From a virus (taxonomy: Duplodnaviria > Heunggongvirae > Uroviricota > Caudoviricetes), in IMG/VR virus record IMGVR_UViG_2693429605_000013: a stretch of DNA of 42,167 bases. The stretch is one strand, 5' to 3'. The notes under the pieces are model-generated. The model was not told the origin of the DNA and did no database searches. It saw only the letters and a program-made list of their open reading frames with translations. The position numbers were made by a program, and so were the translations under genes. Shown here piece by piece: positions 4,119 to 26,655 of the stretch. Each line of letters begins with the position of its first letter. Position 1 is the first letter of the stretch.

Positions 4119-4477
4119 TTCTTATTCTCCGGTGCTTTCGGCATTACTGCCCAGTGAGTGATATTGACGTTTTCAAGGTCCCCGACCTGAAATATCCACT
4201 GCCATTCTCCGGTTTCTTTTTGTCCCCAGGTGTACCAGAGAGAACGCCAGCCAATCAGCCAGCCTTCTCCATTAGCATCAAATAACAGAACACTTTCATT
4301 TGCTGGTGGCAGTTCAGCTGACACTGGTATTATTTTGTTTTCCAGTGCCGCACATTTAGCTTCAAGCGCGTCGAATTTACGTACCAGGTACTCAGCATTT
4401 GTTTCGTTCACTTTCAGATCTCGCGGTACACATTTCCCGCGAAGAAACCCTTCCATTTCGAAAACATTCATGCGCAT
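4115..4477 (-). CDS. Hypothetical phage protein (120 aa), possibly DUF551-related
   Basis: ORF in operon; C-terminal NITHWAVMPKAPE resembles the DUF551-type tail. Confidence 0.5.
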   Translation of the reverse strand: MRMNVFEMEGFLRGKCVPRDLKVNETNAEYLVRKFDALEAKCAALENKIIPVSAELPPANESVLLFDANGEGWLIGWRSLWYTWGQKETGEWQWIFQVGDLENVNITHWAVMPKAPENKK

Positions 4478-5004
4478 TTGCGTAACTCCGATAACTCGTT
4501 AAAACGTTCCATAAACATCCCGTAGGCATGGCCCGGTGCCAGTGGAATCACGTTGAACATCTCTGTTGCCGGGATGCCTTCCAGTACAGGCCAGAAAGAG
4601 CCATCATCAAGCCCGAGATCGCGGCGTTCGGTTGCCAGCATGATGAGATCGGCATATTTCACAGGCGTGCTCATAACCGGGGGTAACCCGTATTTCTCAC
4701 GGATTACGGCGTCTATTTTTTCTTCCATCCGTTTATAGTCAGGAAGAAGGCGTTTCAGTGGTGCGGGGATGTCCTGGCAATATGCTTCTGTTGCATCATG
4801 CATTAACGCTTCAAAAGCAAATTCCTGCGGTACCAGCTGGCTGCAAAGCACCGCATGTTGGGCGACGCTGTAGAAGTGTGAAAGATGTCCTGCAAAGCGA
4901 CAGATATTTGAAAGGGAAACCGCGATATCGTTAATAACGATGTCGTCTTTATTTATCTTGTCATAATAAAAATGCTTCCCGGAAAAAGTTTTAATAAATG
5001 ACAT
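4468..5004 (-). CDS. HD-domain phosphohydrolase (YfdR-like 5'-deoxynucleotidase family)
   Basis: H…HD metal-binding signature (AQHAV…MHDATEA). Start taken as the ATG at 5004 with GGAGA SD; the track's longer ORF begins at a non-ATG codon at 5031. Confidence 0.7.
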   Translation of the reverse strand: MSFIKTFSGKHFYYDKINKDDIVINDIAVSLSNICRFAGHLSHFYSVAQHAVLCSQLVPQEFAFEALMHDATEAYCQDIPAPLKRLLPDYKRMEEKIDAVIREKYGLPPVMSTPVKYADLIMLATERRDLGLDDGSFWPVLEGIPATEMFNVIPLAPGHAYGMFMERFNELSELRKCA

Positions 5005-5131
5005 TTTGTTCTCCACGTATATGCGCTGCACCGCGCTGAATTCTGGTAAAAGGAAGCCCTCACCATCCGGCGATTATTGAGTAAATTATGTTTCCATAAA
5101 TGCCCCCGCAGGGGCATTTGCAGTAATGAAA

Positions 5132-5956
5132 TCAGGCGGTGAAAGTACCAATAAAGGTTTCTACTTTGCTGTCTTTAAATTTCTCAACAAGCAGATCACG
5201 AAATTCGTTAGCCATTTCTTCCTGCACCGCTTCCAGCTGAATAATGCGCAGAACCAGTACAGGACGATCGCCAGTGATAATGCTGAGGCGTAATTTAAAC
5301 GGACGTTCTTTCAGGCCTTCAAACGGAACGCATTTAAATTCAAATGCCACTGGCATAATGTCTTTGGTCTTCGCTTCGACAGACTCCATCAGGGAGCGTT
5401 TGCCGCTGAAGTCATTGTCTTCAAAATCAGCGGTCTGGTTCGCTTCAATTGTGATTTTACGGATCGCCGCAGCCGCTTTGGTTGCCTGAATGGCGTCACC
5501 ATTAGCATCAAAGCCCACAAGGTAGTCGGCCCAGTCTTCAATCCATTCTGCCAGTGACTTTTGGGAGTTACGCTCGCCATTAACAGACAACAGAGCAGAG
5601 AACGGTGCTGTCTTTTTCAGTTTGAGAGTGGCGGTGTTATCTGCGTGACCTGGTTCATCAATAGTACCCAGGTTAAGCACACTGACGGCACGCATATTAT
5701 CGGCATCGATAAAGCAGCGGGTGCCTTCATCTGCAAGATCTTTAGAATAACGGGTAAAGTCATCGATGCTGGCAGTGGAAAGCGCACCACGGAAACGGAA
5801 GCGATTTAAATTAAATTTTTCCAGATCATGAATGCGGAAATTCTCAGGCAATGCCACAGCATCGGCACCAATCTTACTAATAATTTCATTAACACCCTGA
5901 GCAGAAATAAGGGCATGGATTTGATTAATTGCGGTTGCGTCTAAGTTCTGAGACAT
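5132..5956 (-). CDS. DUF2303 / YfdQ-like phage protein
   Basis: 274-aa ORF with GTGAGGA SD; family assignment recalled from CPS-53-type prophages where it neighbours the HD hydrolase. Confidence 0.6.
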
Positions 5957-16208: not shown

Positions 16209-16741
16209 CTCTGTTGCTTTAATAAAATTTTAATATTTTGTCTGATTATGATGAGGCAATGTAATAAAAGAAATACCGTTAGTATTGCAAGCCATACGCA
16301 AAATAAGCATGCATATAAATTAGTTGAAAGTCCAATAGTGAATTGTGCAATTGCTGTTGTGATAGAACATAATATTGATGTATTAATAAATGAGGATAAA
16401 TTGTCTAAAGGTTTATAAAGTACACTATCATTGATTTTGTCAATAGGTATACCAGTGGCAATGCTATAAATTTCCTTATATTCCTGAGTTGCAAAAACCT
16501 TATCGCGTAAATTTATTATGACAAAGGTATGCAGGCTCAATAAAAATGAGCCCACGGAAATAAAACCGGAGAAGAGATAGCCTCGTAAGTTTTTATGATA
16601 AAAATCAAAAAAGTTAACACTTACTTTAGGTGTGTTTCTGTACAATAGGTAAAGTGCAAGCAATGCCAGGATCGAGAATGCAAGCAGTGTAAGGTACTGA
16701 TACCTCAATCTTTTATTTATTAGCCATTCATATAAAGGCAT
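16193..16741 (-). CDS. Polytopic membrane protein (four predicted TM helices); second gene of AT-rich two-gene cassette
   Basis: 182-aa ORF with four hydrophobic stretches and a basic C-terminus (…RQNIKILLKQQRKKGG). ATG start overlaps the upstream gene by 14 nt. Very low GC. Confidence 0.7.
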   Translation of the reverse strand: MPLYEWLINKRLRYQYLTLLAFSILALLALYLLYRNTPKVSVNFFDFYHKNLRGYLFSGFISVGSFLLSLHTFVIINLRDKVFATQEYKEIYSIATGIPIDKINDSVLYKPLDNLSSFINTSILCSITTAIAQFTIGLSTNLYACLFCVWLAILTVFLLLHCLIIIRQNIKILLKQQRKKGG

Positions 16742-17654
16742 TTTTATTCGTCCCGTTCAGCATTTCTTCTTTTATCATATCAAAAACAGGGTTTGTTGTA
16801 TAATTATCGTTTGTCAATCCATTGACTTTATCGGCAATTATATCGAAATCGTATGTTTCAAAAAAAACAGGGCAGTTCATAAAATCAATGGTTTTTTCTA
16901 TTCCTGCATGGTTTACTGCAATAACCTGTGCTTTAGCAACTCCACTCATAGAATTATAAATATTTGAAAGATTCTGAGATAGTTGTTGCACTTTTGTTCT
17001 GTCGCTAGAATTAAAATTCATATCTATTGTGGTGGTGTTAACAAATTGTTCAAGCGCAGTCATTGGTCCACCTTTAAAATCTATATAATTAAATTTAAAG
17101 CTTGTGCTTTTAATCTCTTTGAATTGACATAAAACACTCTGAATGTTGTTTTTATTTGTCATAAGGCTGAAAGTCAGTCTTTCTTTGTATTTTTTATTTA
17201 TTGCAGTTACTTCTTTTTGTTTTGGTTTATCACCAAGTTTTTTTATTTCTTCTTTATTTTGATTTCTGATAAATTCATTACTTATTGTTTCTAAATGAGA
17301 AAAGAGAGTGTTCAGACTGCATGAACCGTGGTGATACATATAGAGACCAGAAAGATTAGATTTTTTAATTAAGAAAAAGTTGAAATTAGCAAGTTTGTCA
17401 CTTCCTTGAAGATCTTCAATTTTAAGCTGGAATTTACCATCAACAAATTGCGACTTACAGTTCTTTTTTTGGTTTCTGAATGTGACAACTAATCCATAAT
17501 AGAAATCATTCACATCCGAAATGAGAATTTTACGAGTATAGTCTGTGCGACTGTGTTCTCTGTTTGATGCGTTGATAAAAGCATTCATTACGTCAACGGT
17601 ATTAATATTTTTGTTATTGTTATTTATTGTAAATCCTATGCTTCTAACTTTCAT
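16728..17654 (-). CDS. Hypothetical soluble protein (308 aa), Asn/Lys-rich; first gene of AT-rich two-gene cassette
   Basis: Long uninterrupted ORF with ATG start; no motif I recognise. About 20-30% GC by eye versus about 50-55% in flanking phage genes. Confidence 0.7.
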   Translation of the reverse strand: MKVRSIGFTINNNNKNINTVDVMNAFINASNREHSRTDYTRKILISDVNDFYYGLVVTFRNQKKNCKSQFVDGKFQLKIEDLQGSDKLANFNFFLIKKSNLSGLYMYHHGSCSLNTLFSHLETISNEFIRNQNKEEIKKLGDKPKQKEVTAINKKYKERLTFSLMTNKNNIQSVLCQFKEIKSTSFKFNYIDFKGGPMTALEQFVNTTTIDMNFNSSDRTKVQQLSQNLSNIYNSMSGVAKAQVIAVNHAGIEKTIDFMNCPVFFETYDFDIIADKVNGLTNDNYTTNPVFDMIKEEMLNGTNKNAFI

Positions 17655-18170: not shown

Positions 18171-18246
18171 GGCCCTTTAGCTCAGTGGTGAGAGCGAGCG
18201 ACTCATAATCGCCAGGTCGCTGGTTCAAATCCAGCAAGGGCCACCA
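18171..18246 (+). tRNA. ileZ: tRNA with CAT anticodon, most similar to tRNA-Ile2 (lysidine type; ileZ-like)
   Basis: Cloverleaf read by hand: acceptor GGCCCTT/AAGGGCC, anticodon loop CTCATAA, T-loop GGTTCAAATCC, 3' CCA. Near-identical to E. coli tRNA-Ile2 as recalled. Confidence 0.85.
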
Positions 18247-18253
18247 TCACATA

Positions 18254-18330
18254 CCGCCATTAGCTCATCGGGATAGAGCGTCAGCCTTCGAAGCTGGCTG
18301 TGCGGGGTTCAAGTCCCCGATGGCGGTCCA
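18254..18330 (+). tRNA. argN: tRNA-Arg (anticodon TCG by manual fold), C1-G72 acceptor end
   Basis: Acceptor CCGCCAT/ATGGCGG, D-arm GCTC…GAGC, anticodon stem TCAGC/GCTGG with loop CTTCGAA, T-loop GGTTCAAGTCC, 3' CCA. Anticodon assignment depends on the hand fold. Confidence 0.75.
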
Positions 18331-18343
18331 TTATCAGCATCAT

Positions 18344-18420
18344 GCGTTGTTAGCTCAGTCGGACAGAGCAATTGCCTTCTAAGCAATCGGTCACTGGTTC
18401 GAATCCAGTACAACGCGCCA
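18344..18420 (+). tRNA. argO: tRNA-Arg (anticodon TCT)
   Basis: Acceptor GCGTTGT/ACAACGC, anticodon loop CTTCTAA, T-loop GGTTCGAATCC, 3' CCA. Confidence 0.85.
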
Positions 18421-19186: not shown

Positions 19187-19618
19187 ATGTTTGGTATTTT
19201 TGGTAAAAAAGCCCGCCGAGCGGCAGTGGAAATTAAAAAGTTTGAGAAACGTGATCTGGCACAGGCGGTTATTAATGCTGCCTATCTGGTGGCCTATGCA
19301 GATGGTGAATGTGAGGCTTCAGAGAAAGCGAAGATCGAGCAGATCTTGCGTAACCAGCCTGCGTTGTCCGCGTTTACGTCAGAAATTAATGCGATTAGCG
19401 CAACCATTATCGGTCAGCTGGATACCAATTTTAAAATTGGTCGTCGTGCCGCGTTACGCGAGATTGAGGATGTGAAACACGATACGCGTGAAGCGGAAGA
19501 TGTGCTGGATGTGGCGGTGGCCATTGCGGAGGCAGACGGCGAAATTGAGCCGGAAGAGCGCAAGGTGCTGGAAGAGATTGCCGGTGTTCTGGGTCTTCGT
19601 CTGGAGAATCACCTGTGA
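19187..19618 (+). CDS. TerB-like (tellurite-resistance TerB family) protein
   Basis: Two acidic helical segments typical of TerB (…AAYLVAYADGECEASEKAKI… and …VAVAIAEADGEIEPEERKVLEEIAGVLGL…). ATG at 19187 with AAAGGA SD preferred over the track's start at 19115. Confidence 0.6.
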   Translation: MFGIFGKKARRAAVEIKKFEKRDLAQAVINAAYLVAYADGECEASEKAKIEQILRNQPALSAFTSEINAISATIIGQLDTNFKIGRRAALREIEDVKHDTREAEDVLDVAVAIAEADGEIEPEERKVLEEIAGVLGLRLENHL

Positions 19619-19782
19619 CGGTAAAACTGCGCCTGGCTGTGGCTGCACTCCTGCTGTTTCTGGTGGTGATGGTGGATTTCACCACCAGAATCATGTCGGT
19701 GCTGGCGGATGGGGTGCTGGTCTGCGGCATTGTGGTATTGCTGTGGCCGGTGATAAAAAGAAACAGCCTGCATAATGCTTGA
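19615..19782 (+). CDS. Small membrane protein (55 aa, two hydrophobic segments)
   Basis: GTG start overlapping the TerB stop (GTGA). Translation MTVKLRLAVAALLLFLVVMVDFTTRIMSVLADGVLVCGIVVLLWPVIKRNSLHNA. Below the track's size cutoff. Confidence 0.4.
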   Translation: MTVKLRLAVAALLLFLVVMVDFTTRIMSVLADGVLVCGIVVLLWPVIKRNSLHNA

Positions 19783-19961
19783 TTTTTTTATTTGCTGTTT
19801 ATTAAAAACACTTCTGCATGGTGAATCCCCCTGTGCGGAGGGGCGACTGGTGTAGGTAGCATTTATTATGTTATAGGCAAGCCGACGCGGGTTCAGTGAC
19901 ACCGGCTGAATTCACCGGGAGGCACCCGGCACCATGCAAGAAAAAGAATGTGCATGCAAAC

Positions 19962-19991
19962 ATGCCCCTCTCCGGAGGGGCATTTTTTATG
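19962..19991 (+). terminator. Rho-independent terminator (ATGCCCCTC-TCCG-GAGGGGCAT plus T6)
   Basis: Perfect 9-bp stem followed by TTTTTTAT. Immediately followed by a second hairpin (GCCCGAA-TGGGT-TTCGGGC, 19998-20020) preceded by an A-run, which would terminate minus-strand transcripts. Confidence 0.65.
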
Positions 19992-20115
19992 GGTAAAAAA
20001 TGCCCGAATGGGTTCGGGCAATAGCATGAGATACTGATATTGTTGTGTTGTTATCGTGTGGATTTTAACCAGGGTTTATCAGGCTGCGCAACTGCGTGGC
20101 CTTTTTTCATTTCTT

Positions 20116-20160
20116 GGGCTGTAGTCCCCGTGTGTCATTCAGGCTTCCGGACTACAGCCC
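20116..20160 (+). promoter_or_regulatory. 12-bp perfect inverted repeat GGGCTGTAGTCC…GGACTACAGCCC with 21-nt loop, 43 nt upstream of the esterase start
   Basis: Read directly from the sequence; lies in the 5' leader of the 617-aa esterase gene. Confidence 0.4.
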
Positions 20161-20203
20161 ACTCCATATCTGATTTAATACACTATCCCGGCCGGGAGGA
20201 ATA

Positions 20204-22057
20204 ATGACATTTAAACATTATGATGTTGTCAGGGCGGCGTCGCCGTCAGACCTTGCGGAAAAGCTGACACACAAACTGAAAGAGGGCTGGCAGCCGTTTG
20301 GTAGTCCGGTGGCCATAACCCCTTATACCCTGATGCAGGCGATTACAGCAGAAGGTGATGTGGTGGTCAGTGGTGCAACTGAGCCGGATTGGTACTACGT
20401 CATCGTACTGGCCGGGCAGTCCAATGCCATGGCTTACGGTGAAGGGCTTCCGCTGCCGGATTCATACGATGCTCCGGATCCGCGCATTAAACAGCTGGCG
20501 CGCCGCAGTACAGTTACGCCGGGTGGGGCTGCCTGCAGATATAACGATATTATTCCGGCCGACCACTGCCTGCATGATGTGCAGGATATGAGTACGCTGA
20601 ATCATCCGAAGGCAGACCTGAGCAAAGGGCAGTACGGCTGTGTCGGCCAGGGCTTACATATTGCCAAAAAACTGCTCCCGTATATCCCGAATAACGCGGG
20701 GATCCTGCTGGTACCATGCTGTCGTGGTGGTTCTGCATTCACCCAGGGCGCTGAGGGGACATTCAGTGCGGACACGGGGGCCAGCCAGGATTCGGCACGC
20801 TGGGGTGTGGGTAAACCGTTATATCAGGACCTGATTGCGCGCACTAAAGCTGCATTACAGAAGAACCCGAAAAATGTGTTGCTGGCGGTGTGCTGGATGC
20901 AGGGAGAGTTTGACATGAGCGCCGCCACCCACGCACAGCAACCTGCGCTGTTTACAGCCATGCTGACACAGTTTCGTGCTGACCTCTCCGTGTTTAACGC
21001 GCAGTGCCATGGTGGCAGTGCTGCAGATGTGCCGTGGATTTGTGGTGACACGACGTATTACTGGAAAAATACATACGCTACCCAGTACGACACCGTGTAC
21101 GGCGGGTATAAAAACAGGGAGAGTGAGGGCGTTTATTTTGTGCCCTTCATGACAGACGGTAACGGCGTCAATACCGCCACTAACGCGCCGGCAGAAGATC
21201 CGGATATTCCGGCATCAGGATATTACGGTGCGGCATCGAGAACGAATGGAAACCAGGTATCATCAAACCGCCCGACACATTTCAGTTCATGGGCGCGCAG
21301 GAGCATTATTCCGGATCGTCTGGCAACCGCTATTCTGAACGCAGCCGGGCGCACCTCAGCCTTCATCAGTGGTAAGGCACCGGAAATCAAACCCTCGCCC
21401 GGCGGCAACACGCCATCGGGTCCGTTTGCAGATACGTCCGTTCGCACAATCTCCCTGCTGCCGGCAGCCGGAGAGGCTGCTGCGCAGGGCTGGAGCATTA
21501 AGGATGGCGGAATTCAGTTGTCAGATGGTGTATTTAAGATCACCAAGCAGAGCAATAAAACCTGGTCCCTGACGCATCCGGTGGATGACGCAATTACCCT
21601 GCTGACACAGGGCGGCAGACTGACCTGTAAGTTCCGCCTGTCAGGCGCACTGACCAACAATCAGTTCGGGCTGGGGATTTATCTGTATACGGATGCTCCC
21701 GTTCCTGATGGTGTGGCGATGACGGGTACCGGTAATCCGTTCCTGATGTCGTACTTCACTCAGACCACTGACGGCAGAGTGAATCTGATGCATCACAGGA
21801 AAGCCGGAAACACGAAGCTGGGGGAGTTCGGCGATTACGGTAACGACTGGCAGACGCTGGAGCTGGTGTTCACCGCCGGCAGTGCCACGGTTACTCCGAA
21901 ACTGAATGGAGTGGCTGGCCCGGCATTCCAGGTTATAAAAGACAGTCTGACACTGGGACTGAATGCGCTGACGCTGACGGATGTTACAAAAAATGCAGCG
22001 TATGGCGTTGAGATAGAAAGTCTGGTGCTGGAGATAAATGCACCGGCATCATCATAA
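20204..22057 (+). CDS. Prophage-encoded sialate O-acetylesterase, NanS-p type (DUF1737 N-terminal domain + SASA/SGNH esterase domain)
   Basis: [14 protein letters not shown] matches the GQSN catalytic block of SASA-family esterases; N-terminal MTFKHYDVV…EGWQPFGSP resembles DUF1737. Sits between the tRNAs and the holin, as in Stx phages. ATG with GGGAGGA SD. Confidence 0.8.
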
Positions 22058-22206
22058 AAAGTGAGCCAGTCAAATGGAAGGTATCGTTAAACTCACCGGT
22101 AGTGTCAGTGGATCGTCTGAGACGCTTGCATGAGTTATCAGAGCCATCAGTAGTTAACTGGTGGCTTTTTTATTGTTGTCAGCTTCCGGATAACGGGAGA
22201 CGGGGT

Positions 22207-22422
22207 ATGTACCAGATGGAAAAAATCACAACGGGTGTGTCATACACCACGTCAGCGGTGGGGACGGGCTACTGGTTCCTGCAGCTGCTGGACAAAGTCT
22301 CTCCGTCCCAGTGGGTGGCAATAGGTGTGCTGGGGAGTCTGCTGTTTGGCCTGCTGACGTATCTGACAAACCTTTATTTCAAGATTAAAGAAGATAAGCG
22401 TAAGGCGGCGCGGGGAGAGTAA
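22207..22422 (+). CDS. S: Holin S (Stx-phage/lambdoid type) with dual-start motif
   Basis: 71-aa product [13 protein letters not shown]… with two TM segments and a charged C-terminus; two in-frame ATGs three codons apart (holin/antiholin arrangement). The track ORF begins further upstream at 22102. Confidence 0.8.
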
Positions 22423-26519: not shown

Positions 26520-26655
26520 ACATGTTAACTGGCTGTCCGGGCATTTTTGCGGTTTTTATCTTTATTATTCAGTTTGTTGTGCGGAAAAAATGTTAACTGG
26601 CTTTTTCAGCAAATGTTAACCAGGCAGCAGTTAACATTTGCGGCATGAGACGCCG
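26520..26655. repeat. Putative cos/terminase recognition region: four copies of AATGTTAAC-like elements in direct and inverted orientation
   Basis: CATGTTAACTGGC (26521), AATGTTAACTGGC (26589), AAATGTTAACCAGG (26621) and inverted CAGTTAACATTTG (26638), between the HNH gene and the terminase small subunit. Confidence 0.45.

Follow-up and report, generated by a model that had tools for sequence, protein, structure and literature searches.

A spacer of ~420 bp (421 bp, positions 19783-20203) separates the stop codon of a DUF3927 gene (19782) from the start codon of a prophage esterase gene (20204) in the window, the 42,167-nt stretch of lambdoid prophage DNA analysed here. A sequence-only reading had described this spacer as non-coding and rich in hairpins, and had proposed that it holds either a short minus-strand RNA or a regulated leader of the esterase gene. 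The question is which of these the spacer contains. It is indeed non-coding: the ORF list gives only short overlapping frames of 30-54 aa, none with coding support. Our analysis revealed that the spacer is an already described pair of convergent small RNA (sRNA) genes followed by a short conserved esterase leader. We assign a probability of roughly 0.88 to this overall explanation, in which an STnc100/PasD-family sRNA gene converges on the anti-sRNA gene agvB upstream of the leader.

The hairpins in the spacer exceed chance. Between 17500 and 22500, 12 terminator-like sites were observed, compared with 5.5 ± 2.3 in shuffled sequences, and perfect inverted repeats of at least 12 bp with loops of 3-40 nt occurred at four loci in the whole window, against a mean of 0.14 in block shuffles. 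Relative to dinucleotide shuffles, the folds of three sub-regions had z-scores of -3.3 (STnc100), -3.75 (AgvB) and -2.75 (the third sub-region). A terminator scan and a repeat search located all three hairpins that had been named earlier: a strong plus-strand terminator (stem 19962-19983, then a T-run), a minus-strand terminator (stem 20020-20001, followed by a U6 encoded at 20000-19995) and an inverted repeat with a 21-nt loop, the arms of which are perfect over 13 bp (20115-20127/20149-20161) and not 12 bp. Two points had been overlooked, namely a fourth element consisting of a plus-strand hairpin (20081-20102) followed by TTTTTT, and the nature of the first 200 bp, which form an sRNA gene in their own right. 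Elsewhere in the window, one of the four inverted-repeat loci lies inside the DUF3927 ORF (12 bp, 19658-19690, TTCTGGTGGTGA ... TCACCACCAGAA, 9-nt loop), and overlapping perfect repeats of at least 12 bp are found at 26588-26639 and 26609-26641, within 26588-26641.

We scanned the window with Rfam and obtained adjacent matches on opposite strands, both at gathering level. STnc100 (RF02076) matched the plus strand at 19790-19994 with 155.8 bits against a gathering score of 47 (model positions 1-206), and AgvB (RF02702) matched the minus strand at 20056-19995 (62 nt) with 96.5 bits against a gathering score of 56. What had appeared as back-to-back terminators are the 3' ends of the STnc100-family sRNA gene and of the AgvB gene. 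Convergent sRNAs at a moron site downstream of PR' are the layout described by Tree et al. 2014 (PMC4104026). In a permissive scan of 19600-20400, all matches other than STnc100 and AgvB fell below their own gathering scores. Where the two convergent terminators abut, a perfect palindrome of 12 nt (GGGCATTTTTTA/TAAAAAATGCCC, 19978-19989/19994-20005) connects them, and their U-tails are mutually complementary, so that an alternative hairpin is possible in read-through RNA.

The gene context agrees with that of known loci. Upstream of the spacer are the Q antiterminator gene, three tRNA genes (18171-18420), two small ORFs, a terB-family gene and the DUF3927 gene (55 aa), and downstream are the esterase, holin and lysozyme genes. 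The order tRNAs or stx, STnc100, anti-sRNA, esterase and holin is common to O157 prophages and Stx1/Stx2 phages. In related loci, stx1AB, stx2AB or nothing stands in place of terB/DUF3927, and AgvB is replaced by AsxR, an EcOnc03-like variant or a third convergent RNA. The modules recombine independently: STnc100 is found by itself, as tandem copies or paired with any of three anti-sRNAs, and the anti-sRNA is wholly missing from some esterase leaders. On our reading, the spacer is the sRNA module typical of E. coli lambdoid prophages, placed between moron genes downstream of PR', here terB and the DUF3927 gene in place of stx, and the nanS-p esterase and lysis genes, its two convergent genes ending in abutting terminators. 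Among the neighbouring genes, the tRNA at 18171-18246 was called Met (anticodon CAT) by ARAGORN, and its counterpart in strain UTME-9 and in O157:H7 2571 is a tRNA-Ile in RefSeq, suggestive of an ileX-type tRNA with a modified anticodon. Two minus-strand genes at about 16252-17654 separate the Q antiterminator gene from the tRNA cluster; in the UTME-9 region that matches, one is annotated as hypothetical and the other as a DUF6731-family protein. The pair opposes the late operon and resembles an inserted cargo module.

Could the whole 420 bp instead be one cis-acting esterase leader, such as an attenuator, a riboswitch or a thermosensor, whose hairpins are alternative folds of a single plus-strand transcript? 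In favour of this, a single gene follows all the hairpins and shares their strand, the fold of the region is more stable than those of its shuffles, and the palindrome common to the abutting terminators could form an alternative hairpin. However, two independent curated sRNA families on opposite strands account for 19790-20056, and their homologues show primary 5' ends and discrete Northern bands. Moreover, no cis-regulatory Rfam family was found in 19600-20400 even at E ≤ 1, the 13-bp stem is followed by no U-run, and the independent exchange of modules, including esterase leaders without an anti-sRNA, is at odds with a single functional unit. We regard one continuous leader as highly improbable, and the earlier idea of a regulated esterase leader finds no support over most of the spacer, where 19790-20056 is two sRNA genes.

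The minus-strand gene is AgvB. It matched the full-length model (1-62), with the consensus matched at every position, and is 100% identical to AgvB1 and AgvB2 of O157:H7 Sakai (Sp10 and Sp17). The RNA begins at C20056 with a 5' variable region (CGAUAACAACACAACAAUAUC) carrying CACAACA, the target consensus of GcvB R1 (Tree et al., PMC4104026), and its conserved ~42-nt 3' part ends in a Rho-independent terminator with an 8-bp GC-rich stem. Downstream of PR', the gene is flanked by a moron CDS and a conserved phage ORF, and it converges tail to tail on STnc100. The Sakai copies (EcOnc01a/b) share the 62-nt sequence, CACAACA, the terminator, the orientation antisense to PR' and the slot between the terB/DUF3927 moron and the esterase gene; there is no sequence difference, and what differs is the host strain. 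The short minus-strand RNA proposed earlier was thus correct in kind but not in extent, since it spans 20056-19995 (~60 nt) and not 20030-20200.

In O157:H7, AgvB is a ~60-nt Hfq-dependent primary transcript with a TAP-dependent triphosphate 5' end (Tree et al., PMC4104026). Base pairing between its 5' end, which contains CACAACA, and the R1 seed of GcvB, a core sRNA, relieves GcvB repression of targets such as dppA, and deletion of both AgvB copies reduced competitiveness in bovine terminal rectal mucus (PMC4104026). By analogy with this published work on the identical Sakai sequence, from which expression, Hfq binding and function are taken, the window copy would be expressed from the minus strand (20056 to 19995) and would act as an anti-GcvB sRNA. 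AsxR (EcOnc02; RF02703), EcOnc03 and a third-class sRNA (E2348C_1409-1408 IGR / EcOnc08-type) occupy the same slot and orientation in other loci, and AsxR and EcOnc03 share the conserved ~42-nt 3' part. Their 5' variable regions are unlike that of AgvB, so that their targets differ; the AsxR model scored 43 bits on the window, below its gathering score of 63. The text form of the AgvB sequence in the supplement of Tree et al. is without an 'AAC' found in the genome, the Rfam consensus and the window.

A candidate AgvB promoter can be read on the minus strand at 20062-20107. It comprises a -35 element TTGCGC (20091-20086), an 18-nt spacer, a -10 element TAAAAT (20067-20062) and a +1 at 20056, with an A-tract at 20107-20102 (-46 to -51). 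This putative promoter is weak by consensus and falls under the promoter-scan threshold. Loci of the AsxR, EcOnc03 and third-class types preserve its geometry, with TATTAT as the -10 element there.

The plus-strand gene has the fold of the STnc100 family. Its RNA is predicted to extend from about 19816 to about 19990 (~177 nt), on the basis of the PasD2 5'-end alignment and the EcOnc06 size described below. In an alignment of 21 related copies, 11 of 36 consensus pairs showed compensatory changes, and the alignment supported a closing helix (GCAUGGUG/CACCAUGC), three internal hairpins and a terminator. All of these helices are kept in the window copy, which also has the A-rich linker; two of the hairpins are the invariant CCCCC..GGGG and CCGGG..CCCGG, and the third covaries. 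The terminator (19962-19988) has a 9-bp stem, the loop CCGG and a T-run at 19983-19988, and covariation in its stem among relatives includes C-G to U-A and A-U to G-C.

EHEC copies of STnc100 (RF02076; EcOnc27/sRNA103, EcOnc05 and EcOnc06) share this multi-helix core, A-rich linker and intrinsic terminator, and are likewise convergent partners of an anti-sRNA. EcOnc27 adjoins AsxR and measures ~235/247 nt, and EcOnc06 of Sakai Sp17 is ~177 nt on Northern blots, the size predicted here. The EcOnc06 Northern probe maps to the STnc100-like core on the PR' strand, indicating the same RNA class as the window sRNA. A published table lists 11 STnc100 loci in EDL933, nearly all with transcriptome reads and one confirmed by Northern blot, and STnc100 RNA has been detected in STEC vesicles. 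The window copy differs from these relatives in its central variable arm, which matches neither that of the Sakai Sp10 copy nor that of Sp17, and in its score of 155.8 bits, lower than the 176-203 of the best-scoring copies. In addition, the 5' block AAATGTTAAAT..CTCACAATTCAG..GTTGAC.. present in most copies is absent here, where the DUF3927 3' end and a PasD-type flank stand instead and the gene begins right behind the DUF3927 stop codon; the canonical flank, lying at the 5' edge of the Rfam model or beyond it, is not a curated family criterion.

Published coordinates on NC_002695.2 would place EcOnc06 at the equivalent of window positions 20031-20093, antisense to AgvB. We rejected this placement as a version offset, because the AgvB1 coordinates are offset by ~137-146 nt and the probe lies within the STnc100-like core. 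The coordinates in Table S2 and Fig. S4 of Tree et al. 2014 are ~137-146 nt off NC_002695.2, where the AgvB copies are at 1941920-1941981 and 3486386-3486447. STnc100-family genes also occur in head-to-tail arrays among the related loci: L010 carries three consecutive copies at 4461-5169 and a fourth elsewhere, and L007 (2379-2865) and L008 (2214-2687) carry two each, every copy with its own terminator.

The 5' end of the plus-strand RNA was approached through PasD2. The annotated PasD2 5' end (741157 in NC_011601, 172 nt; Table S6 of PMC8550237, Pearl Mizrahi et al. 2021) aligns to G19816, and from this alignment and the size of EcOnc06 the RNA probably starts at that nucleotide. Alignment with PasD2 and with the PasD-like copies in L027 and E. 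albertii L095 places a DUF3927-proximal flank and the 5' end at GCAUGGUG. A putative sigma-70 promoter (19779-19808) consists of a -35 element TTGATT (19779-19784), an 18-nt spacer and a -10 element TAAAAA (19803-19808), and a similar block precedes PasD2 in E2348/69 (TTGACT-18-TAAAAA) and the PasD-like copies in L027 and L095. A stricter sigma-70 scan listed neither sRNA promoter; both were read from the sequence and the alignments. As the plus-strand candidate is weak and its -10 element does not have the conserved final T, the 5' end could instead arise by processing of the terB-DUF3927 transcript.

PasD1 and PasD2 of EPEC E2348/69 resemble the window gene in the upstream DUF3927 gene, the promoter-like block, the aligned 5' end, the first helices and the place upstream of the esterase gene. 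A preprint by Zhu, Shabalina and Storz (2026) states a common ancestry of PasD and STnc100 and places these genes next to the esterase. PasD, however, carries the seed UGUGAG just upstream of the terminator GGCUGCGCAUGGCGCGGCC-U8 at its 3' end. This seed has no match in the window copy, and the PasD-like terminator sequence is not the 3' end of the window sRNA but lies ~90 nt downstream, past the STnc100-type terminator and AgvB. Because the seed is unmatched and the RNA ends at its own STnc100-type terminator, the plus-strand RNA is a relative of PasD and not a PasD. It is a chimera, with a 5' flank and putative promoter of PasD type and a core and terminator of STnc100 type, and would function as an Hfq-type sRNA of the STnc100/PasD family. 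The PasA 3' segment showed no similarity anywhere in the window, including downstream of the esterase gene, where EPEC E2348/69 carries PasA.

The PasD-like terminator sequence is the fourth hairpin of the spacer. This second plus-strand terminator-like element (20081-20108) has the form AGGCTGCGC-AACT-GCGTGGCCT followed by TTTTTT, with its stem at 20081-20102, and it overlaps the candidate -35 element of AgvB. No other element of the leader is so widely conserved. Leader classes A and B both retain it, with ~100 nt between it and the downstream esterase ATG, and PasD-type loci have no other terminator following the sRNA core. The 3' end printed for PasD1/PasD2 (UGUGAG-UUCUGGCUGCGCAUGGCGCG) is matched by this hairpin, and the PasD terminator arm itself is matched over 9 nt only, at 20082-20090. 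The hairpin appears to be homologous to the PasD terminator, as judged from a motif of ~27 nt and the conserved position. It may be a retained PasD-type terminator, now separated from the sRNA core by AgvB and an inserted STnc100-type terminator. On the plus strand it could serve as a back-up terminator, shielding the esterase and lysis genes from sRNA and moron transcription in the lysogen, and on the minus strand it may supply the -35 element and the upstream A-tract to the AgvB promoter.

Downstream of this hairpin, the 5' leader of the esterase gene contains the 13-bp perfect inverted repeat (20115-20161), which forms a stem in the minimum-free-energy fold. Conservation analysis of this repeat, a check named in the earlier reading, showed that 16 distinct class-A leaders retain the stem, 84-94% of the cells being paired. 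Stx2-type leaders have one or two internal mismatches in it, and PasD-type and iraM-type leaders are without it, other sequence taking its place. Covariation is weak, coming essentially from one lineage (L044/L008) with two adjacent compensatory pairs. Distant leaders from species-representative genomes yielded five loci, two of them informative (Escherichia sp. and E. albertii), and none added a stem variant. Among the leaders, G.U pairs numbered 20 when the stem was read on the plus strand and 3 on the minus strand, and the corresponding counts for the second hairpin were 21 and 2, which favours formation in plus-strand RNA. We found no Rfam match to the stem (19600-20400, E ≤ 1), and the promoter scans gave nothing convincing in its vicinity. 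A regulated leader may thus be confined to the last ~100 nt of the spacer, where conservation was observed but neither decisive covariation nor a known family. Our best guess is that the 13-bp stem most likely acts as a processing or stability element on the plus-strand RNA.

The repeat might also act as DNA, either as a binding site for a dimeric protein or as a recombination boundary between phage modules. It is perfect in the window, its conservation is mostly plain sequence identity, and it sits at the junction where leader classes switch. A 21-nt arm spacing and a loop that varies in length (21 to ~27 nt) and in sequence are nevertheless unusual for an operator, and the lineage that keeps pairing through two compensatory changes, together with the plus-strand bias of wobble pairs, argues for a structure in RNA. 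A role at the DNA level thus seems decidedly improbable.

A perfect repeat folds on either strand, and the leader structures could in principle belong to a longer minus-strand RNA that begins within or close to the esterase 5' end, extends to the AgvB terminator and regulates esterase translation as an antisense RNA, with AgvB as its 3' part or as an additional product. A precedent exists in Sakai Sp4, where the minus-strand RNAs EcOnc08/21/42 (~271 nt) cover the equivalent leader region; their Northern probe has the plus-strand sequence of the L028-type leader hairpin region, indicating that these RNAs cover the leader in antisense. In contrast, the AgvB 5' ends were mapped as primary, giving an RNA of ~60 nt (Tree et al., PMC4104026), and the G.U bias points to the plus strand in both leader structures. 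A relaxed scan of 20150-20400 produced only weak minus-strand promoter candidates. A longer antisense RNA is unlikely in our view, although the Sp4-type RNAs leave some probability of a minus-strand role for the stem region.

The esterase gene (20204-22057) encodes a 617-aa prophage sialate O-acetylesterase (NanS-p / SASA), identified from the ORF list and RefSeq/GenBank homologues. Its ribosome-binding region (20186-20203) contains the Shine-Dalgarno sequence GGGAGGA (20194-20200). In the minimum-free-energy fold, a 4-bp hairpin UCCC/GGGA (20186-20189 with 20194-20197) could cover part of the Shine-Dalgarno sequence. The block TATCCCGGCCGGGAGGA is kept in most class-A leaders. Beyond the esterase stop, a terminator-like hairpin with a T-run (22140-22168, plus strand) lies in the interval before the holin gene (22058-22225).

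In lambdoid and Stx phages, intrinsic terminators between Q/PR' and the lysis genes are passed only by Q-modified polymerase. The window likewise has several intrinsic terminators between Q/PR' and the esterase and lysis genes; unlike those of lambda-type control, they double as the 3' ends of autonomous sRNA genes, and one overlaps a putative divergent promoter. Mitomycin C induced nanS-p in most strains tested (PMC10462455), which fits transcription from PR' by Q-modified polymerase and would place the stem in the leader of a late message. The 13-bp stem and the Shine-Dalgarno-proximal hairpin would then form the 5' leader of an esterase message made after induction by a Q-modified, terminator-resistant polymerase.

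The last ~125 nt before the esterase gene, with the PasD-type terminator, the 13-bp stem-loop and the Shine-Dalgarno hairpin, might together constitute an undescribed cis-acting element of the late transcript, a proposal that is doubtful at present. If true, the element might govern processing or stability of the RNA or be targeted by the sRNAs encoded next to it, and it would set the level of the esterase and lysis-gene message in lysogens versus induced cells. Less likely than such an element, read-through of the first terminator could yield a plus-strand RNA of ~19960-20108 that contains an exact antisense copy of AgvB, would resemble the R1 seed of GcvB and could act as an AgvB sponge. As observations on this interval, a sub-threshold GcvB-like Rfam match covers 19960-20108 on the plus strand (20.7 bits, E = 0.032; gathering score 42), and the plus strand between the two plus-strand terminators includes the antisense of AgvB, which resembles the G/U-rich R1 seed of GcvB.

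Finally, we examined how widely the spacer is distributed. Some part of it matched in 2730 of 5426 complete E. coli genomes, and at least 80% of it was present in 644 of the 5426. A 100% identical copy was found in strain UTME-9, a pig isolate, and the 421-bp spacer is 91% identical to Sp10 and 92% identical to Sp17 of O157:H7 Sakai. The module is real, yet ordinary for E. coli lambdoid prophages. RefSeq carries no annotation across the spacer in the identical UTME-9 copy, leaving a gap in annotation although part of the spacer matches in about half of complete E. coli genomes.

These findings show that the host-reprogramming sRNA module of O157:H7 prophages is also present in this stx-negative lambdoid prophage, with an AgvB identical to the copy that improves the competitiveness of EHEC in bovine rectal mucus (Tree et al. 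2014). What is new is small: the plus-strand RNA is a PasD/STnc100 chimera, an apparent PasD-type terminator is reused upstream of the putative AgvB promoter, and the esterase leader contains a conserved stem. These points should be useful mainly for research on the evolution of prophage sRNAs.
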